This document shows positions 7,549 to 63,570 of a stretch of DNA of 64,000 bases, one piece after another; positions within the stretch are counted from its first letter, which is position 1; every line of letters begins with the position of its first letter. This stretch comes from an uncultured Clostridia bacterium (GTDB taxonomy: Bacteria > Bacillota > Clostridia > Christensenellales > UBA1242), in NCBI GenBank assembly GCA_934749845.1, contig CAKVHQ010000002.1:48962-112961 (forward strand), read 5' to 3'. The position numbers were made by a program, and so were the translations under genes. The notes beneath the pieces were generated by a model. It was given only the letters and a program-made list of their open reading frames with translations, did no database searches and was not told the origin of the DNA.

Positions 7549-7617
7549 ACTGAAATTTTAACAAATTCTGCCCTAACTATTGTTAGAGAATATTTGGAAA
7601 TCTCACAAAAAGAAAGG

Positions 7618-21375: not shown

Positions 21376-24354
21376 GTGCCAATCGTAACTAATTTTGAAA
21401 AGAATTTTGACAAGAAGAAAAAAATGCCCACTTCAAAAGTAGTGGGTTTAATATTGCTTATAGTTGCAACAATCGGCTATTTGGGTCTATTTATAAAATG
21501 GATCCCTTTTTTGCATAATTTTTTAGTTGGCACATTTGGGCTGTTTTCCTATGTGTTGTTTCTTTTAATGTACTTAATTGGCGGTGCATTATTTAAAGGT
21601 GCAAAGTATGTTTACTCAAAAAAATATTTGTTTTATTTAAGCATGGCTCTAATTTGCGTTTTAGCAGTGTTTCATATTGCTTTCACATACTCAATGCCAC
21701 TAACCACTTATGGAAAATATCTTTCTGCAATTTATAGCGAAACATTAAGTGTTGGCGGAGTTTTGTTAGGGCTAATAATTTATCCACTTCAAAAATATCT
21801 TTATCCAATAGGTGCAATTTTCTTGTTCCTAATTGTTTTAGCATTTAACATTTGGCTGATATACGACTATTTAACAAGAGTTAGATACCTCAAACAAACC
21901 GACACTAAAATTTTCAATAAAAAAATTAAAAAGACATTTGAAACTCCTCAAAAAAATGTCAATGTTTCATTTGAACTCGGTCAAAAAAACAACACAAAAA
22001 TTGGTCTTGATGCACAAATTGAACAAGACCAAAAGTCTAGGGAAGATGCTTTAAAAAAACTAGGTCTAGACAAAACATTACGCAACGAGCATTTTGTTGA
22101 TAATAGGCAATTAACTTCATTTGCCAACGACTTTATGAACAAAAAAAGCGGTTCTCAAATTTTTGACCAACAACAAAACAATTACGAATCAACAAGCAAA
22201 AGTAAAAGTTCTTTAACACCACCAACCGATTATAGAGGTACATTTGGCTATAACTTGGTGGACAACAATAGTTCTAAAACAAAAAAATCTATGTCTAATT
22301 ACGATAAAAACTTGGAATTTTTGCAAGCAACATTAAGCGTACCTAATCCTAAAAACTCAAACGAAGCAGGGCAGTCGCAAGGTAAGCACAGCGATGCTTC
22401 AATGGCGGACTTTTTGGACGCAAACTTTGGTGATTATCGCACAGCAGAGCAAACATTCGCCAACAAAAAATTAGCCCAAGAAAGTTATTCAAGCAACGAT
22501 TATTCAAGCGACTATAACACAGTAAGTTCAAACCAAGAAACACCAAGCGAACCATTTATAAGCCCTGTTGACGAAACAGAAAATGATTCATTTGAAAAAC
22601 CTTTTGAAACCATTAAAGATGACTCGTTAAAAAATACGGATAATGTTCAAGAAACAACTAATTCGTTTGAAAACAAGATTGAACAAAGCGTTGACCAACT
22701 TAAAACCAACACAGAAGATAAAATTGACCTTAAAAACTTTGAACTTCCAGACTCGCTTAAACTTCCAAAAGACTCTTCGCGAAGAAGGGGACTAAAATTA
22801 AACGAAAACCAAAATTCGCTTTTTGATGTTAAGCAAGACGAACAAGCAAAAGAAGTTAAAAAGCCACATTTCTTTAAAAGATATGTTCCACCAACAGTCG
22901 ATTTATTATCTAGCGTGGCAGTGGATACAGCCAAAATAACAGAAGATGTTGAAGCAAACGCAAGAGCCATCGAAACCACTTTGGAAAACTTTGGAATTGC
23001 CGCAAAAGTTACAAACACAACAATAGGACCTGCTGTTACTAGATATGAACTTAACATGCCAGCAGGTATTAGCGTTAACATGGTAACAAAATATTCAAAC
23101 GACATTTCTGCCGCTGTTGCTTCAAGTCGTGGCGTTAGAATTCAAGCACCAATTCCGGGCAAAAGTGCGGTTGGTGTTGAAGTTCCAAACCGAAAAGTTA
23201 GCATGGTTGGAATAAGAGAAGTTGTTGAAAGCAGAGAATTTTTAGTAAATAAAAATGTGCTTTCTTATGCCGTAGGTAAAGAAGTTAGCGGAAAATGTGT
23301 TGTTGCAGATATGCACGAAATGCCACATATGTTGGTTGCTGGTTCAACTGGTTCAGGAAAGAGTGTTGCTTTAAATACACTTATTGTAAGTTTAATCTAC
23401 AAGTATGGTCCAGAAGATTTAAGATTTATCCTTGTTGACCCAAAACAAGTTGAGTTCTATTCATACAACGGGCTTCCACATATGTTGCTTCCAGAAGCTA
23501 TTATCGACCCTGCAAAATCATTAAATGCTCTTGATTGGGCGATTGCCGAGATGGAACGAAGATACGCACTTTTAAGAGAGTCTGGCGTGCGTGAAATTAT
23601 TGAATACAACAATTTGCCAGAAGTAAAAAACAAGTCAAAAGAAAAATTGGCTCATATTGTCATCATTATTGACGAAGTTGGCGACATTATGAGTTTGAAC
23701 AACATAAAGAAAGACTTTGAAGAAAAGGTTAGAAGATTAACCCAAAAGGCAAGAGCCGTTGGAATTAACTTGATACTTGCCACTCAAAGACCATCTGTTG
23801 ATGTTATTACTGGTGTTATTAAAGCAAACTTGCCATCAAGAATGGCGTTTGCAGTTTTGAATTATCAAGACAGTAAAACCATTTTGGACACTGGTGGTGC
23901 TGAAAAATTGCTTGGAAAAGGCGATATGTTATTTTCGCCAAGAGGAATTGAACCATTCCGTGTTCAAGGATGCTACATTTCAACACAAGAAATTAACAAT
24001 GTTTGTGCTTTTGTTAAAGAGCATAACGAAAGTTACTTTGATGAAGAAATTGACAAGGCAATAAATAAAGAGGACGAGCCAGAAATGTCTAGCGACATTG
24101 AACCTAGTGATGAAGGCGGAACTCATTTCGACCCACTTATGCCAGAATGTTTAAAACTAGTAATTAAAAATGGTTATGCTTCTGTTTCTATGTTGCAACG
24201 AAGGTTCAGCATAGGCAACCCAAAAGCAGGAAAAATTATAGACCAAATGGAACAAGCAAAATTTATTGGTCCAAGTAATGGTTCAAAGCCAAGAACGGTT
24301 TATATTACCGCCGAACAATTTAAAGAAATATTTGGAGAAGGAATTGACGATTAG
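21376..24354 (+). CDS. ftsK: DNA translocase FtsK/SpoIIIE
   Basis: N-terminal TM helices, long low-complexity linker, motor domain with Walker A GSTGSGKS, C-terminal gamma (winged-helix) domain. GTG start with AGGAG Shine-Dalgarno. Confidence 0.93.
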   Translation: MPIVTNFEKNFDKKKKMPTSKVVGLILLIVATIGYLGLFIKWIPFLHNFLVGTFGLFSYVLFLLMYLIGGALFKGAKYVYSKKYLFYLSMALICVLAVFHIAFTYSMPLTTYGKYLSAIYSETLSVGGVLLGLIIYPLQKYLYPIGAIFLFLIVLAFNIWLIYDYLTRVRYLKQTDTKIFNKKIKKTFETPQKNVNVSFELGQKNNTKIGLDAQIEQDQKSREDALKKLGLDKTLRNEHFVDNRQLTSFANDFMNKKSGSQIFDQQQNNYESTSKSKSSLTPPTDYRGTFGYNLVDNNSSKTKKSMSNYDKNLEFLQATLSVPNPKNSNEAGQSQGKHSDASMADFLDANFGDYRTAEQTFANKKLAQESYSSNDYSSDYNTVSSNQETPSEPFISPVDETENDSFEKPFETIKDDSLKNTDNVQETTNSFENKIEQSVDQLKTNTEDKIDLKNFELPDSLKLPKDSSRRRGLKLNENQNSLFDVKQDEQAKEVKKPHFFKRYVPPTVDLLSSVAVDTAKITEDVEANARAIETTLENFGIAAKVTNTTIGPAVTRYELNMPAGISVNMVTKYSNDISAAVASSRGVRIQAPIPGKSAVGVEVPNRKVSMVGIREVVESREFLVNKNVLSYAVGKEVSGKCVVADMHEMPHMLVAGSTGSGKSVALNTLIVSLIYKYGPEDLRFILVDPKQVEFYSYNGLPHMLLPEAIIDPAKSLNALDWAIAEMERRYALLRESGVREIIEYNNLPEVKNKSKEKLAHIVIIIDEVGDIMSLNNIKKDFEEKVRRLTQKARAVGINLILATQRPSVDVITGVIKANLPSRMAFAVLNYQDSKTILDTGGAEKLLGKGDMLFSPRGIEPFRVQGCYISTQEINNVCAFVKEHNESYFDEEIDKAINKEDEPEMSSDIEPSDEGGTHFDPLMPECLKLVIKNGYASVSMLQRRFSIGNPKAGKIIDQMEQAKFIGPSNGSKPRTVYITAEQFKEIFGEGIDD

Positions 24355-26346: not shown

Positions 26347-26362
26347 TCAAACAAATGTTTGA
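26347..26362. promoter_or_regulatory. LexA (Cheo-type SOS) box upstream of recA
   Basis: TCAAACAAATGTTTGA palindrome 16 nt upstream of the recA -35. Shares AACAAATGTTT with the sites at 61733 and 62887. Confidence 0.7.
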
Positions 26363-26378
26363 AAAAATGCCAAAACGC

Positions 26379-26407
26379 TTGCAAAATGTGGGCAAAAAAG
26401 GTATAAT
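26379..26407 (+). promoter_or_regulatory. recA promoter
   Basis: TTGCAA-17 nt-TATAAT. Confidence 0.6.
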
Positions 26408-26435: not shown

Positions 26436-27425
26436 ATGGAAAACAATAAAAAGAAAGCACTTGAAGATGCAATAGCACAAATTGAAAAACAATTTGGCAA
26501 GGGCTCAATCATGAAGATGACAGAAGGCGCAGTTGAAAAATGCGATGTTATTCCAACAGGCTGTTTGACACTTGACTATGCGTTGGGAGTTGGCGGTATG
26601 CCAAGAGGAAGAATTATCGAAATTTATGGTCCAGAAAGCAGTGGTAAAACAACAGTTGCGTTGCATGTTGTGGCAGAAGCACAAAAAATGGGCGGAACAG
26701 CCGCATTTATTGATGCCGAACACGCACTTGACCCAGTTTATGCAAGCCGTATAGGCGTTAATATGGACGAATTATACATAAGCCAACCAGACACTGGCGA
26801 ACAGGCACTTGAAATTTGTGAAAACTTGGTTAAAAGTGGAGCAATCGACATTATCGTTATTGATAGTGTTGCCGCATTAACTCCAAAGGCAGAAATTGAT
26901 GGTGAAATGGGCGATAGTTTCATGGGTCTTCAAGCAAGACTTATGAGTCAAGCATTAAGAAAATTAACCAGCATAACCAACAAAACAAAAACATGCGTAA
27001 TATTTATTAACCAGTTAAGAGATAAAATTGGCGTTATGTTTGGTAATCCAGAAACAACAACAGGTGGTAAAGCACTTAAATTCTATTCAAGCATTCGTCT
27101 TGATGTTAGAAAAGTTGATACAATTAAGGACACTCAAAACAACATAATAGGTAACAAAACAAGAGTTAAAGTTGTTAAAAACAAACTTGCAGCACCTTTC
27201 AAAGTTGCCGACTTCGATTTAATGTATGGCACAGGTGTTTCAAAAACTGGTTGCTTGGTTGACCTTGCCGTTGAGTATGACATTATCGAAAAGAGCGGTT
27301 CATGGTTTAGTTATAATGGCGACAAGATTGGTCAGGGCAAAGAAAATGTAAAATCTAACCTTGAAAACAACCCAGAACTATATAACGAAATTGAAGCAAA
27401 AGTTAAAGAAAAAATGTTTGCATAA
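26436..27425 (+). CDS. recA: recombinase RecA
   Basis: GPESSGKTT Walker A and conserved L1/L2 regions. Confidence 0.98.
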
Positions 27426-57521: not shown

Positions 57522-59666
57522 TTATTTGGCATAATATGGAAGTTTGCTAAAAATTTTATTTAAAACAGGCATCGTTGCGTACAAAATTAGCAAACAAGAA
57601 GGCACAACGAAACTAAAACAGTAATTTCCTATTGTTTTCAAAGTCATACCAGATAGGTTGTTAAACAAAAATAACAAGCCAAATCCAACAACTGCCACGA
57701 TTAAGTTAAGTAAAAAGCGTTTAGTTTCAAATTTATATATAACACGTTTATATTTGCCATATGAATACGAAGCAATTTCGATAATCATAAATAGCCCAAT
57801 AACAGATGCATTTGCAAGCATAAATAACTTTTGGTTATTTACTAAAATAAATTGTTGTTCTTTTACTAACGAAAATGTTAAAAGAAGGGCAATAGCAATT
57901 AGCGACAATATCATGCTTGAAGTAAAGTTTAGTTTGCCAATTCTTGTAAACTTACTTGTTTTAATTTCCGGAACATTTTTGCGAAGATACCTTATTTCGT
58001 AATCGCTAAAATTATATCCATGATTTTCGCATTTCTTGTCAAATGACAAGTTGTTAGTGCTATATTGTGCTTCTGTTTGACTTATGGTTGCTTTTTCGTT
58101 GAAACTTAAGTCATTCGAGTTCGTAGTATTTATTTTGTCGTAATAATTTTGTTCAAAGTTTTTATAATTACTGTTTTGTTCTTGGTTATAAGCCTTTGTG
58201 GAACTATATTTTGAAGAATCTAAACTCAAATTGATATTGTTCATATATTCGTGTGCTAATGATTGGTCGTTATTTTTTCTAACCACTTGTTCAACTGGTT
58301 CTGGTTCAGCAACTTGCTCTGTTTTAGCAATTAAGCTTTGCTTATCACTGTCATCATAAACATCGCCAAAAATGCTTTTAAAATTTATGTTGTTAAAGTT
58401 ATCAACAAAATCTTTAGTAAAGCCCAAATCTTCGGTTAAATTGGTGTTTTTATCGTTAATTTGACGCATAGTTGAAGAAGTAACTTGTGACTGTTCAAAT
58501 TCTTTATTTTCATACTTTTCAAAAGTTTGTGAATTTTGAGCGCTATCGGCTTGAATCTCTTGGCTATTACTATTTGCATTTACCAAACTGCTATCAAAAA
58601 TTTCCACCTTATGCAAATTTTCATCAACTTTTGGTGCATTTAAGTTTCCAGAAAGTGCCTCACTCATTCTTCTTTCTTGCATCAAGCGTTCTTGCTCTGT
58701 TTGGTCAAAAAAGTTTTCTTCTTTTTTAGGCTCTTCATTTGTTTTAGATTGTTCTTCAAACGACTTTTGAAACTTTTCATATAGTTCATCAAAATTATCT
58801 TTTTTAACAGCAGTTTCTTGCATTGTGGAATTGTTAAAACTGCCCATAAAATCACTGGTTCTGTCTAAATCTTCAAACGAAACAGGAGTGGTGGACTTTT
58901 CTTCTTTGTTTTCATAAAAACTTGTTGAAGACTGGTTAATGAAATCGTCGAAATTTATTTTGCTATTCAATTTTTCTCCAACCGAAACTTCTTCTTGTTT
59001 TAAAGTTTTTTCTTCAACAATTTTTTCTTCTTTTTGTTCAACTATATTTTGTGGCTCAACCTTTTCTTCACGCTCTGGTTGCTTAATTTCTTCCACTTTT
59101 GGTTGAGTAGCAATTTCTTGTTGAGCCTCTTCATTTTTTTTATTGCTTAAATCTGCAAAAGAGAACAAATCAAACTGATTTTCATTAACTTTATGACCAA
59201 AAGTTTTATTTTCAGTTTGTGGAGCAGGCGAGTTGATTGCTTGACTTAATTGTTCATTAGTTTTTTGAGCATCAAAAAGCGAAGATTTTGCATCTTGTAA
59301 ATCTTCTTTAATGTTATCAATATTTTTCTCTAATTCGCTTTTTTGAAACATAGAGTCAACCAAGTCGTTTCGTTCATCTTCCCACGAAAAGTTGGTTTGT
59401 TCAATTTTTCTTCTTCCTTGCTCGGTTAAGCGGTAATAATGGCGTCTACCACCAATATCACTATCACCCCAATAAGATTCAACTAATTTTTGCGACTCCA
59501 ATCGTTTAAGTCCGCTATACAAACTTGGCTGTTTTAAAATATAGTTTCCATTTGTCTTTTGTTCAACTTCTTGACAAATTTCATAGCCATATTTATCGCC
59601 AGATTGAAGGGCTTTCATGATAATATTATAAACCGAACCTCTGCCTGAACCTATGCTTTGTTTCAT
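57522..59666 (-). CDS. membrane-anchored PadR-family transcriptional regulator with a long low-complexity linker
   Basis: N-terminal winged helix (GDKYGYEICQEV...LKQPSLYSGLKRLESQKLVESYW...RRHYYRLTEQG), ~470 aa acidic/Asn/Gln-rich linker, ~5 C-terminal TM helices. Start moved to ATG 59666 (GGAGA Shine-Dalgarno). Confidence 0.75.
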   Translation of the reverse strand: MKQSIGSGRGSVYNIIMKALQSGDKYGYEICQEVEQKTNGNYILKQPSLYSGLKRLESQKLVESYWGDSDIGGRRHYYRLTEQGRRKIEQTNFSWEDERNDLVDSMFQKSELEKNIDNIKEDLQDAKSSLFDAQKTNEQLSQAINSPAPQTENKTFGHKVNENQFDLFSFADLSNKKNEEAQQEIATQPKVEEIKQPEREEKVEPQNIVEQKEEKIVEEKTLKQEEVSVGEKLNSKINFDDFINQSSTSFYENKEEKSTTPVSFEDLDRTSDFMGSFNNSTMQETAVKKDNFDELYEKFQKSFEEQSKTNEEPKKEENFFDQTEQERLMQERRMSEALSGNLNAPKVDENLHKVEIFDSSLVNANSNSQEIQADSAQNSQTFEKYENKEFEQSQVTSSTMRQINDKNTNLTEDLGFTKDFVDNFNNINFKSIFGDVYDDSDKQSLIAKTEQVAEPEPVEQVVRKNNDQSLAHEYMNNINLSLDSSKYSSTKAYNQEQNSNYKNFEQNYYDKINTTNSNDLSFNEKATISQTEAQYSTNNLSFDKKCENHGYNFSDYEIRYLRKNVPEIKTSKFTRIGKLNFTSSMILSLIAIALLLTFSLVKEQQFILVNNQKLFMLANASVIGLFMIIEIASYSYGKYKRVIYKFETKRFLLNLIVAVVGFGLLFLFNNLSGMTLKTIGNYCFSFVVPSCLLILYATMPVLNKIFSKLPYYAK

Positions 59667-59689
59667 CTTTTGTCTCCTTAATTTAACAA

Positions 59690-59719
59690 ATTTTAACATA
59701 TTGTTTTACAATATGTCAA
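59690..59719 (-). promoter_or_regulatory. padR-like operon promoter with a 21-bp perfect palindrome filling the spacer (candidate autoregulatory operator)
   Basis: Minus strand reads TTGACA-18 nt-TAAAAT. ACATATTGT-AAA-ACAATATGT (59696-59716) spans the spacer and the edge of the -35. Confidence 0.55.
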
Positions 59720-59798: not shown

Positions 59799-60473
59799 AT
59801 GAATATGATAACACCAAAACTAATAAAGCGAAGTGACAGAAACAGTCTTGCATTAACGATAGATGATTATGGCGATTTGATTGTTAAAGCGCCAAGAAAT
59901 ATGACCTTGGACGAAATTTTTTCGTTCATTAACAAAAAACAAAAATGGATAGAAGAAAAGCAAACAAAAACTAAATCAATTTTGCAAAAAAACTACGAAG
60001 TAGTGAACTATGAAAAGATTTTTTATCTAGGAAAATTATTTAAAATTTATCAAACAAAGGGGATAGATGAGCCATATTTAACCAATGATGGACTAATTAT
60101 AAAGTCAACAAACTCTTTGAATAGCCGAAAAGCAATGCTTAAATCGTTTTTAATTAAGCGTTGTGACGACATTTTATTCCCAAGAATAATCAATCAAACA
60201 AAGCGTTTAAATGCCGAATTTTCGGCGATTAAGGTTGTTTCAAGCAAAACAAAATGGGGTATGTGTGACAGCAAACGAAATTTGTATTTTAATTACAAGC
60301 TTTTAATGCTTTCGCCAGAACTAATTGATTATATTATCATTCACGAAATTTGTCATTTAAGCCAGTTAAACCACAGTTATAAATTTTGGAAATTGGTAGG
60401 AAAATACATGCCTAATTATAAGCAATGCCAAAAACTACTAAAAGACTGCAACTTTTTAATAAAGTTATTTTAG
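59799..60473 (+). CDS. YgjP-like (DUF45/M48-type) zinc metallopeptidase-fold protein
   Basis: C-terminal HEICH (HExxH) followed by ...H...FW. Start uncertain (ATG 59799 or 59805; the ORF track uses TTG 59769). Confidence 0.7.
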   Translation: MNMITPKLIKRSDRNSLALTIDDYGDLIVKAPRNMTLDEIFSFINKKQKWIEEKQTKTKSILQKNYEVVNYEKIFYLGKLFKIYQTKGIDEPYLTNDGLIIKSTNSLNSRKAMLKSFLIKRCDDILFPRIINQTKRLNAEFSAIKVVSSKTKWGMCDSKRNLYFNYKLLMLSPELIDYIIIHEICHLSQLNHSYKFWKLVGKYMPNYKQCQKLLKDCNFLIKLF

Positions 60474-60650
60474 ACGAGTAATACGAGTAATAAATGATTT
60501 GGTGTATAAGAGATAATAATTGAAACAATTCATAAACCAAATACGCTAAACATTACAATTTATATTGAAAAAGAATTTCTTAAGCATAGCATTAGCTATG
60601 TTTTTTTGGAGTAGGTGAATAAAAAATTGTTTTTATTTATATTTATAACT

Positions 60651-60676
60651 ATTCGCAAAATACAGATTTTGCGAAT
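60651..60676. repeat. 26-bp perfect palindrome ATTCGCAAAAT-ACAG-ATTTTGCGAAT (hairpin or recombinase-core-like site)
   Basis: Read directly. Its left arm plus flanks (TATTCGCAAAATAC, 60650-60663) recurs at 61788-61801. Confidence 0.8.
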
Positions 60677-60757
60677 TTTATCCCTATGAAATAGCCCGAA
60701 AAGTCGGGAGTTTATATTTTTTACTATTTTTTAAATTTTTTCAAGTTTTCAAAATTC

Positions 60758-60790
60758 TTAAAAAAATCGTAACTTAATTTCGTTACGATT
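60758..60790 (-). terminator. terminator of the NTase-like gene
   Basis: AATCGTAAC/GTTACGATT stem plus T-run on the minus strand. Overlaps the stop codon. Confidence 0.65.
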
Positions 60791-61712
60791 TTTTATCAAT
60801 TACTTCTTCAAAGTTTTCAAAAGCATATCTAATTTTGTTAACAAATTGCTTTGCTAATTTTATTGAGTAAAGCGATTTGTTGTTAAACATTAAATCAGTT
60901 TCGTCAGCAAGCATAAAATTATTAGGTTTTTTGTTAAGCATGTAAGTTATAATATTTTGTATCATAGCATAATTGTTGTTTTCCAAAAACAAATTGTTTG
61001 GAATGTTGTATAAATAATTTTCAACAAAACCATTTTTGCCGATATATAATTCAGTTTCTTCGGCAAGCAATAATTCAAGTTCTAGTGCTTTGAATAGTTT
61101 TACAACTTTTCCAAAATTTTGCTTTGTTTGTTCATTTTTTTTGTCTATATTATCTAAATATTGGGTTGGATTTACATTAACCCAAGTGTTCACACGTCGA
61201 CATAAAAAATTCTCATTCCCAAAGTCATAGCAAATTGTGATTTTTGCAACGACATTTTGAGCAAACCTAATCATAATTTGGTTGCGTTTTGTGTAAATTT
61301 TCGCAATCGAAGGCATTTGCGCTCTTAAGTAAGCGTCAAACCTTTCAGCCACTTGTTCTGCTTGCATAATGCCTTTATTTGTTGCAACGCCCATAATTTG
61401 TTGATAAGTGCTAACTTTAACTTTACCTTTTTTTGTGACTTTTTGAGATGTCACTGCTAAATTTATATTTTCTCGGTCTGTTTTATAAATTATATAAAAT
61501 TCTATTAGTGAATTTTCATAGCCAGTGTTTGAAATATAATCGCCAAAAGGAAAAACCGTCAATATGCCAGTTAATAAGTCGTTAAAAGCCGTATCTTTAA
61601 TTTCTTCCAACTTTGCGTATAAGTCTTCATATAAAGTGTATATTTTAGTATTTTCTCGTTTTTCTTTGTCTTCAATCGCTTTTAAAACAATGCTTAAATT
61701 TTCCTTTTCCAT
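60783..61712 (-). CDS. diverged nucleotidyltransferase-fold protein (SMODS/CD-NTase/MNT-like) with incomplete catalytic triad
   Basis: FGDYISNTGYENSLIEFYIIY aligns to hG[GS]x9-13-DhDh with only the second carboxylate kept. Later KITICYDFG and NPTQYLDNI...FGKVVKLFKALE resemble the helical segment of pol-beta-type NTases. GGAAGG Shine-Dalgarno. Confidence 0.5.
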   Translation of the reverse strand: MEKENLSIVLKAIEDKEKRENTKIYTLYEDLYAKLEEIKDTAFNDLLTGILTVFPFGDYISNTGYENSLIEFYIIYKTDRENINLAVTSQKVTKKGKVKVSTYQQIMGVATNKGIMQAEQVAERFDAYLRAQMPSIAKIYTKRNQIMIRFAQNVVAKITICYDFGNENFLCRRVNTWVNVNPTQYLDNIDKKNEQTKQNFGKVVKLFKALELELLLAEETELYIGKNGFVENYLYNIPNNLFLENNNYAMIQNIITYMLNKKPNNFMLADETDLMFNNKSLYSIKLAKQFVNKIRYAFENFEEVIDKKS

Positions 61713-61729
61713 TCATACCTTCCATTTTT

Positions 61730-61758
61730 ATTATAAACAAATGTTTATATAAAATCAA
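61730..61758 (-). promoter_or_regulatory. promoter of the NTase-like gene overlapped by a LexA-type box
   Basis: Minus strand reads TTGATT-17 nt-TATAAT. The palindrome ATAAACAAATGTTTAT (61733-61748) covers most of the spacer and part of the -10. Confidence 0.6.
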
Positions 61759-61787
61759 TTTATTTATACAATATTTTTTGTCGCAAG

Positions 61788-61801
61788 TATTCGCAAAATA
61801 C
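61788..61801. repeat. second copy of TATTCGCAAAATAC
   Basis: Exact 14-mer also at 60650-60663, in the same orientation. The two copies bracket the NTase-like gene and its promoter. Confidence 0.8.
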
Positions 61802-61821
61802 TTTTTTAAATTAAACACATG

Positions 61822-61830
61822 TGCTATAAT
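61822..61830 (+). promoter_or_regulatory. extended -10 (TGCTATAAT) ending 6 nt before the recombinase ATG (leaderless candidate)
   Basis: TGCTATAAT-TTAAGT-ATG(61837). The same TGTGCTATAAT 11-mer occurs at the ftsK promoter (21334-21344). Confidence 0.4.
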
Positions 61831-61836
61831 TTAAGT

Positions 61837-62877
61837 ATGGAAAAACTTAATTATTTTCAACAACGAAACATAAAAAACGAGCAACAACTGCAAAAAATTT
61901 TGAAAGATTTACCCATGTTTTGCGAAGACTTTTTTATTGGAATTGAAAGCCGTACAACGCCACTTACAAGGCTTGGTTACGCACAAGATTTAAAAAGATT
62001 TTTTATCTTTTTAACCACACAAACTTATGCTTTTTCAAACAAGTCGCCCAGCGAACTAACGCTTGCCGATTTAAACAGAGTTACGGATTCTCATATTGAA
62101 AAATATTTGGTTTACTTAAATTCTTACGAAAATCAAAACAAAGTGTTTATTAACACAAGAAAAACAAAAGCAAGAAAGTTTTCTAGCGTTAAAACCATGT
62201 TAAGATTTTTCTATCGCAAAGGCAAAATCGACCAAAATATCGGCGATAAATTGGATAGTCCAAAGTTAAAAGACAAGGAAATTATCAAACTTGAACCCGA
62301 AGAAGTTGTAAAACTTTTAAATGCCGTTGAAACGGGCGAAGACCTTTCCCCTGCCGAAAAGAAATTTCATGACATTACAAAATGCCGTGACATTGCAATA
62401 ATGACGCTTTTTTTGGGCACTGGAATTCGTATAAGCGAGTTGGTTGGACTAGATGTTAGCGACATAGATTTTAACCAAAATGCGTTCACTATAACCCGAA
62501 AAGGCGGAGCAAGAGTTATTCTCTATTTTAGCGATGAAGTTAAAACTGCTTTATTGCAATATCTTGATGAACGAAACGCGAAAGCAAGCGAAGACGAACC
62601 TGCTTTTTTCCTTTCCCTTCAAAATAAACGAATTACCACAAGGGCTGTGGAGAAACTAGTAAAAAAATATTGCAGTTCGGTTATCCCACTAAAAAAGATT
62701 ACTCCGCACAAACTTAGGTCAACCTACGGCACAAATTTATACAGAGAAACTGGAGACATTTATATCGTTGCAAGCGTTCTTGGTCATAAAGATGTTAACA
62801 CTACCAAAAAGTATTATGCTCAAATTTCTGACGACATGAGACGAAGTGCTTCAACGAAAGTAAAATTAAGAGATTAA
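61837..62877 (+). CDS. tyrosine site-specific recombinase (XerC/XerD-like)
   Basis: N-terminal SAM-like core-binding domain. Catalytic residues in GTGIRISEL, HKLRSTYGT, LGHKDVNTTKKYY. Start set to ATG 61837, because the ORF-track ATG 61819 lies inside the -10 region. Confidence 0.85.
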   Translation: MEKLNYFQQRNIKNEQQLQKILKDLPMFCEDFFIGIESRTTPLTRLGYAQDLKRFFIFLTTQTYAFSNKSPSELTLADLNRVTDSHIEKYLVYLNSYENQNKVFINTRKTKARKFSSVKTMLRFFYRKGKIDQNIGDKLDSPKLKDKEIIKLEPEEVVKLLNAVETGEDLSPAEKKFHDITKCRDIAIMTLFLGTGIRISELVGLDVSDIDFNQNAFTITRKGGARVILYFSDEVKTALLQYLDERNAKASEDEPAFFLSLQNKRITTRAVEKLVKKYCSSVIPLKKITPHKLRSTYGTNLYRETGDIYIVASVLGHKDVNTTKKYYAQISDDMRRSASTKVKLRD

Positions 62878-62887
62878 AAATTTTTTA

Positions 62888-62926
62888 GAACAAATGTTTG
62901 ACAAACTAATTTTTATGTGTTATAAA
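62888..62926 (+). promoter_or_regulatory. lexA promoter with an autoregulatory LexA box overlapping the -35
   Basis: GAACAAATGTTTG (62888-62900) overlaps TTGACA (62898-62903)-17 nt-TATAAA (62921-62926). Confidence 0.7.
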
Positions 62927-62958: not shown

Positions 62959-63570
62959 ATGAAAAAAATTGAACAAAATTTAGAGAAATTAGTTGATTAT
63001 ATTTGTGATTGCAGTTCTAACATGAACTATCTTCCAAGTGTTCGAGAAATGGCAGACCATTTGGGCATTAAAAGCACATCAACCATAAGTTATTATCTTG
63101 ATATTTTAGACAAACGAGGCGTTATAAAAAAGAGTTCTAACTCCAAAGCAAGAGCATTTGAAATTATCGACAACAAAAAAGAAGAAGAAATTCCTATGGT
63201 AAAAGTTCCACTCGTTGGTAGAGTAACTTGCGGAACGCCAATTTTGGCTGTTGAAAATTACGAAAGCATCTACTCTTTCCCACAAAACTTATTTAATAGC
63301 CAAGATTTATTTATGCTTCAAGCCGAAGGAAACAGCATGATAAACGCCGGAATACATAACGGCGACTATATTGTTGTTCACAAACAATCTTCGGCTGAAA
63401 ATGGCGAAATTGTTGTTGCTATGGTAGACTATCACGCAACAGTAAAAAGATTTTATCGTGAAACAGGCCGTTTTAGACTTCAACCAGAAAATGACACAAT
63501 GAGTCCTATCTACACTTCCAATGTGATAATTCTAGGTAAAGTTGTTGGACTAATTAGAAAAATGAGATAA
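62959..63570 (+). CDS. lexA: SOS repressor LexA
   Basis: N-terminal winged HTH (PSVREMADHLGIKSTSTISYYL), S24 peptidase Ser (GNSM) and Lys (VKRF). Confidence 0.95.
   Translation: MKKIEQNLEKLVDYICDCSSNMNYLPSVREMADHLGIKSTSTISYYLDILDKRGVIKKSSNSKARAFEIIDNKKEEEIPMVKVPLVGRVTCGTPILAVENYESIYSFPQNLFNSQDLFMLQAEGNSMINAGIHNGDYIVVHKQSSAENGEIVVAMVDYHATVKRFYRETGRFRLQPENDTMSPIYTSNVIILGKVVGLIRKMR

Follow-up and report, generated by a model that had tools for sequence, protein, structure and literature searches.

Does the SOS repressor LexA control a gene for a nucleotidyltransferase (NTase)-like protein in an uncultured member of the Clostridia, and what kind of protein would this bring into the response to DNA damage? 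The question arises from three short dyads in the 64,000-nucleotide stretch of DNA analysed here (the window). One is located upstream of recA, one upstream of lexA and one within the promoter of the NTase-like gene (60783-61712, minus strand). The organism is a sporulating, low-GC member of the Clostridia, with spoIIGA-sigE and YtfJ present, and the named close relatives of its RecA come from MAGs labelled Clostridiales, Christensenellales and 'Candidatus Apopatousia equi'.

The LexA operator of this clade

An earlier note on this DNA had reported the three sites, had taken their common motif as the LexA operator and had found no further copy in the window. Its positions and letters proved exact on a check of coordinates and sequence, and the 11-mer AACAAATGTTT indeed occurs only three times, at recA, at lexA and in the NTase promoter. 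The recA operator, TCAAACAAATGTTTGA (TCAAAC-AAAT-GTTTGA; 26347-26362), lies 74 nt before the ATG of recA (26436-27425, plus strand) and overlaps the -35 element TTGAAA (26359-26364) of the upstream recA promoter. The autoregulatory operator of lexA (62959-63570, plus strand), GAACAAATGTTTG (62888-62900), overlaps the -35 element of a promoter composed of TTGACA (62898-62903), a 17-nt spacer and TGT-TATAAA (62918-62926). The third site, ATAAACAAATGTTTAT (ATAAAC-AAAT-GTTTAT; 61733-61748), is a candidate operator with perfect 6-bp arms. Its 12-nt core, AAACAAATGTTT, is that of the recA operator and is one nucleotide removed from the lexA operator.

Comparison with related genomes bears out the assignment of the motif as the LexA operator of this clade. 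The lexA operator, TAGAACAAATGTTTGACA, is invariant in 15 related loci from 11 lineages whose NTase-like proteins are 40-97% identical to that of the window. Regions upstream of recA were collected from relatives through RecA homologues and contig look-ups; a metagenome scan with PgsA aimed at the same regions returned two unrelated loci only. The recA operator, TTCAAAC-AAAT-GTTTGAA, is kept between diverging flanks in the three relatives L021, L022 and L023 (RecA 88-97% identical). The L023 copy has its centre flipped to read ATTT, which implies that the orientation of the centre is irrelevant.

The motif shares with the clostridial and Firmicute LexA (Cheo) box, GAAC-N4-GTT[CT], the same dyad, the AAAT centre, the AAC/GTT cores and the overlap with core promoter elements. 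In C. difficile, GAACAAATGTTTG forms the core of the recA operator (AGAACAAATGTTTG), and the dissociation of purified LexA from this operator is very slow (PMC4234289). The clostridial consensus given in that study is GAACnnnnGTT[TC]; C. difficile LexA also bound relaxed sites, with complexes ranging from stable to unstable (PMC4234289).

The LexA protein itself (203 aa) is a full LexA equivalog: it scores 193 bits against TIGR00498 (cut-off 111), includes LexA_DNA_bind and Peptidase_S24 domains and carries the Ser/Lys dyad. Its scissile bond (around VGRVTCGTP) is Cys-Gly and not the usual Ala-Gly. This is so throughout the clade except in L016, which has Ala-Gly. The dyad is intact. The bond cleaved in UmuD is also Cys-Gly, so that self-cleavage of LexA is expected.

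Two further observations concern the surroundings of such sites. Transcription of recA apparently starts from tandem promoters: the upstream one, whose -35 element is overlapped by the box, has CAAAAT as its -10 element (26382-26387), and a second, TTGCAA-17-TATAAT (26379-26407), lies 3' of the box; this tandem layout recurs in L021 and L022. A site of the form AAC-W4-GTT at 7575, upstream of spoIIGA-sigE, was considered as a LexA box and set aside, given its TAAC/GTTA halves and the unrelated gene that it precedes. It belongs to a perfect dyad, CTAAC-TATT-GTTAG (7573-7586), 25 nt upstream of the start of the spoIIGA-sigE operon, and its half-sites are not LexA-like.

A candidate operator in the promoter of the NTase-like gene

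The NTase-like gene is preceded by a promoter of the Sigma-A type on the minus strand (61730-61758), with TTGATT (61758-61753) and TATAAT (61735-61730) separated by 17 nt. The earlier note had proposed this promoter, and a consensus scan recovered it independently. The promoter is a real one: only the most divergent lineage (L016) departs from its -35/17/-10 layout, and the letters of the spacer vary. The start codon, ATG at 61712, matches that of all homologues. The candidate box covers 13 of the 17 spacer bases and three bases of the -10 element. It thus lies within the promoter as the note had claimed, at a position where a bound repressor would block RNA polymerase.

Our preferred reading, to which we give a probability of about 0.55 on the strength of these sequence comparisons, is that LexA represses the NTase-like gene in this lineage. 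A LexA dimer would bind ATAAAC-AAAT-GTTTAT in the organism of the window and in its closest relatives. The site extends over the spacer and into the upstream edge of the -10 element of the only evident promoter of ORF 60783-61712, and bound LexA would for this reason be expected to block RNA polymerase. On DNA damage, RecA filaments would stimulate self-cleavage of LexA and the gene would be derepressed. Control by DNA damage is plausible because the core of the site is that of the organism's own recA and lexA operators and because it lies inside the promoter.

The half-sites temper this reading. Both halves of the candidate box read GTTTAT; those of the recA and lexA operators read GTTTGA (three) and GTTCTA (one). 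Each of the latter keeps either C4 or G5, and the candidate box has neither of them in either half, so that weaker binding of LexA is predicted. The box matches the classical GAAC-N4-GTTC at six of the eight core positions. Compared with the B. subtilis box, CGAAC-N4-GTTCG, its halves (TAAAC/GTTTA) have A for G and T for C and lack the flanking C/G.

The box is AT-rich and set in an AT-rich spacer, and it is possible, if on the doubtful side, that it is a chance palindrome to which LexA binds too weakly to matter, the promoter being constitutive as in the orthologues. Besides the missing C4 and G5, this explanation draws on the behaviour of C. difficile LexA, which holds some perfect-core sites only unstably (PMC4234289), and on the frequency of the motif. 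Indeed, 0.71 copies of the 11-mer are expected by chance in the whole, AT-rich window, and at least three copies were found in 6 of 100 shuffles, so that a third copy somewhere in the window is unremarkable. The relaxed form AAC-N4-GTTT occurs about as often as chance predicts (27 found, 28 expected), and only similarity over the full length is therefore informative. At up to two mismatches to the recA 14-mer, four sites have both the AAC and GTT cores: the three named above and one in mutS. Against chance stands the place of the site, exactly over a core promoter. For the intergenic DNA, 8.3 kb in all, the expectation under a first-order Markov model is only 0.08 copies of the 11-mer and 0.036 of AAACAAATGTTT. 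Moreover, in 23 related loci (about 180 kb) no stray copies occur: all exact copies lie at lexA, at recA or at the NTase promoter.

The phylogenetic distribution of the box bears on both readings. It is kept only in the subclade of the window, that is in L010/L011 (97% protein identity) and in L009 (82%). L009 has the box at 16 of 16 positions and the spacer at 16 of 17, although its leader and the region upstream of its -35 element, like neighbouring positions outside the hexamers, have changed. By comparison, the spacers of L001 and L012, whose proteins are 76% identical, differ at about half of their positions. Since these spacers drift freely and the L009 box is unchanged, the box appears to be constrained within the subclade of the window, which argues against a chance palindrome. 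Outside the subclade the picture favours chance: in orthologues at 40-64% identity the promoter and the gene order persist and the box is degenerate or absent, as it is in 9 of the 11 other lineages with otherwise conserved promoters. L002 (61%) carries ATAAATATTTGTTTAT, with a single mismatch at a key position, the C of AAC, and its spacer is thus one substitution from the box. In L015 (57%) the box is more degenerate, with several mismatches, and no box was found in the orthologous promoters of L001, L012, L005, L006, L016, L017 and L018.

Control by LexA is hence not a conserved trait of the NTase-like gene, the box being confined to the subclade of the window (at least 82% identity). In this the candidate, known here from its sequence, differs from the known Cheo boxes with which it was compared, as it is not conserved in orthologous promoters. 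A neighbour-joining tree joins the subclade of the window to a boxless sister clade, L001/L012, and the lineages with near-boxes branch one step further out; the box is therefore either ancestral, with repeated loss, or was perfected only recently. Its restriction to the closest relatives would make the gene a recent, though unproven, addition to the SOS regulon. Judged from these promoters, the candidate box is unstable in evolution, and the promoter in which it lies is otherwise conserved.

The entire 5' region has been remodelled in the box-bearing subclade. Here an insertion of 11 nt after the -10 element gives the gene a leader with a Shine-Dalgarno sequence; in most other lineages (L001, L002, L005, L006, L012 and L015) the gene has the arrangement TATAAT-N6-ATG and looks leaderless.

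Two other explanations assign the site differently. The dyad could be the operator of another regulator of AT-rich dyads, such as a local factor, its likeness to a LexA box being coincidental. L002 retains 20 of the 21 bases of the box region despite the loss of the C critical for LexA, which could mean a constraint unrelated to LexA. We consider this improbable, as neither a candidate regulator nor a further copy of such a dyad was found and the 12-nt match to the recA and lexA operators has its simplest explanation in LexA. Also improbable is that LexA binds the site to act on the divergent recombinase-lexA unit, with the lexA operator, at a distance of 1.15 kb, as its loop partner or with the site as a second, distal operator: the site does lie in the shared divergent intergenic region and the AAAT centre of all three sites is on the plus strand, that of recA, lexA and the recombinase gene, but centre orientation is irrelevant (the L023 flip), the site lies some 95 bp upstream of where recombinase transcription starts (-10 element at 61825-61830), outside that core promoter and over the NTase promoter instead, and relatives regulate lexA without the candidate box.

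If LexA does control the NTase-like gene, the mechanism, occlusion of a promoter by LexA, is a known one; the candidate target would be new and the link limited to one lineage. The finding would be modest by itself, since LexA regulons are already known to vary by lineage: in C. difficile, regulon membership does so and includes non-repair genes, with lineage-specific members as proposed here (PMC4234289). It would nevertheless bring a probably non-catalytic, uncharacterised cGAS-like protein into a clostridial SOS regulon and make DNA damage a concrete condition under which to seek its function. It would also provide a small, clean example of regulon turnover, in which an operator appears or decays within a spacer and the promoter and gene order are conserved.

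The NTase-like protein

The product of the gene (309 aa) has a CD-NTase fold with a degenerate catalytic motif. The NTase fold that the earlier note had assigned is recovered in the predicted structure as a full, bilobed CD-NTase (CdnE-like) fold. The AlphaFold2 model, built on 21 sequences, has a pLDDT of 88 and a pTM of 0.85, and its top 12 PDB matches in Foldseek are all CdnE enzymes (E 1e-12 to 9e-10). The full-length match to CdnE CD-NTases of CBASS (PDB 7X4A, 6E0N, 7X4T and 6E0K) has E values of 1e-12 to 1e-10 and TM scores of 0.57-0.67. The proteins also share a C-terminal motif, FVENxLYNVPN, and the K..T and K..E positions. The ORF gave no match in a local copy of Pfam, and its homologues carry PF26305 (CD_NTase_C), a label that comes solely from their precomputed annotations. 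Models of CBASS cyclases (PADLOC and NCBIfam) match weakly, mainly in the C-terminal half and far below their cut-offs (about 43 bits or less for PADLOC).

The catalytic motif hG[GS]...[DE]x[DE] with a third acidic residue was not found in the protein. In a profile alignment to EmCdnE and LpCdnE, whose N-terminal stretch is below significance but whose register agrees with the predicted strands, GS is paired with G57-D58 and D-V-D with L69-I70-E71. GD thus stands in place of GS, and a hydrophobic residue occupies the position of the first Asp in DxD; at D163, where the third acidic residue is usually found, members of the family have D, K or N. Of three acidic positions expected for catalysis, two are therefore not conserved, with the loss of the first Asp in DxD, and DxD is also missing in about 25 more distant full-length relatives. 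Since the motif is degenerate, nucleotidyltransferase activity is improbable, and the protein is more likely to be inactive or non-canonical. It would probably bind a ligand or nucleic acids, or catalyse a non-canonical reaction, and not synthesise cyclic oligonucleotides.

A similar condition is found in the Mab21-type homologues of cGAS, eukaryotic proteins with a cGAS-like fold which lack the catalytic residues, suggesting a non-enzymatic or ligand-binding role. The degenerate metal-binding triad is common to both, an analogy at the level of the superfamily only.

The reading as an active CBASS cyclase was rejected on account of the catalytic motif and the lack of an effector gene. In the fetched loci no effector, Cap2/Cap3 or HORMA gene was found beside the NTase-like gene and, in contrast to genes for CBASS cyclases, it is a core syntenic gene of the chromosome and not part of a defence island. 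The family is rare: a set of 5.8 billion proteins contains 22 clusters of it at 90% identity, and a scan of GTDB genomes yielded two true relatives only (46-47% identity).

The recombinase, a conserved palindrome and the surrounding genes

Wherever contigs reach far enough, the gene order is kept: lexA, an XerS-like tyrosine recombinase, the divergent NTase-like gene, a YgjP-like peptidase, a PadR protein and an ABC transporter. The NTase-like gene is thus a rare core syntenic chromosomal gene that always adjoins the XerS-like recombinase gene and lexA. The recombinase gene (61837-62877, plus strand), divergent from the NTase-like gene and upstream of lexA, keeps this position in every fetched lineage whose contig extends that far. 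Its mRNA is apparently leaderless: TGC-TATAAT (61822-61830) is followed by ATG at 61837, and this ATG lies 6 nt past TATAAT in the aligned lineages.

Outside the coding regions of the locus, conservation is highest not in the LexA box but in the unit GTATTTTGCGAATA[CG]TT, read in the sense of the NTase-like gene. One copy of this unit lies between the divergent promoters and a second makes up an arm of a palindrome. This conserved palindrome, TATTCGCAAAA-TACAGA-TTTTGCGAAT (60650-60676), lies downstream of the NTase-like gene and is a candidate dif-like core site for the recombinase. A half-copy, AAGTATTCGCAAAATACTT (61786-61804), consists of one palindrome arm and 3 nt of the centre. It is located between the two divergent promoters, where no other block of intergenic sequence is so well conserved, and is centred at about -42 relative to the recombinase start, which is apparently leaderless. 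Palindrome and half-copy thus bracket the NTase-like gene. The palindrome is kept in 11 lineages (L001, L002, L005, L006, L009, L010, L012, L015, L016, L017 and L018), and in L016 both arms have changed together, that is, they co-vary. Two other identities were rejected: the palindrome is not a terminator, as no T-run is conserved on either strand across the lineages, and TTTTGCGAA does not fit TGNCGAA, the Spo0A box.

It is a reasonable hypothesis, from the sequence relationships described here, that the palindrome is the dif-like site of a single Xer recombinase, with the NTase-like gene placed between the recombinase gene and the site. The resemblance is to the XerS/difSL and XerH/difH modules, in which a single recombinase resolves dimers (PMC5357621, PMC2965235) and an inverted-repeat site likewise lies near the gene. 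For the XerS/difSL type a site of about 28-34 bp at the replication terminus is expected. The recombinase, of about 350 aa, has the XerS model NF003462 as its best model and matches it over the full length, at 184.6 bits, under the cut-off of 267. The inner layout of the palindrome (...AAAA, 6 nt, TTTT...) resembles the difSL arms TTTCCGAAAA and TTTTCTTGAAA and the difH arm AGTTATGAAAA (PMC5357621). In contrast to the XerS/difSL arrangement, the full palindrome is 1.1 kb from the recombinase gene, the NTase-like gene intervenes and only the half-copy adjoins the recombinase promoter.

The sign of the GC skew and the strand of the genes switch once in the window, at about 54-55 kb, with genes on the plus strand to about 54.7 kb and on the minus strand thereafter. 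This switch, about 6 kb from the palindrome, would fit a replication terminus nearby; the window ends 3 kb past the palindrome. A gamma domain is seen in the FtsK of close relatives, and the orthologue in the window (992 aa) is encoded at 21376-24354.

The widest interpretation is that a degenerate cGAS/CD-NTase-like core gene of Christensenellales-like sporulating Clostridia, lying beside lexA and between an XerS-like recombinase gene and its dif-like site, was drawn into the SOS regulon in one lineage. The protein, not a phage-defence cyclase, would then help to deal with DNA damage or chromosome dimers at the terminus, for instance by sensing DNA or nucleotides. In this full form we regard the proposal as unlikely. 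That the gene is cargo of an ancient Xer-integrated element, which might be part of such a history, is speculation.

The remaining features concern the neighbourhood of the locus. Against Rfam, the whole window and the region 60400-61900 gave tRNAs only, none of them near the locus, which indicates that the conserved hairpins belong to no known RNA family. The YgjP-like and NTase-like genes converge on an intergenic region of 300 nt, which contains a GC-rich hairpin, CCCGAAAAGTCGGG (60690-60720), followed by a T-run on the plus strand and kept in L001 and L002; it could end a small transcript. Further along, the PadR protein (725 aa; 57522-59699) combines an N-terminal PadR domain, a long, low-complexity linker rich in acidic and polar residues and a C-terminal multi-pass membrane region. 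It is syntenic in relatives, and the ABC transporter pair is encoded next to it.
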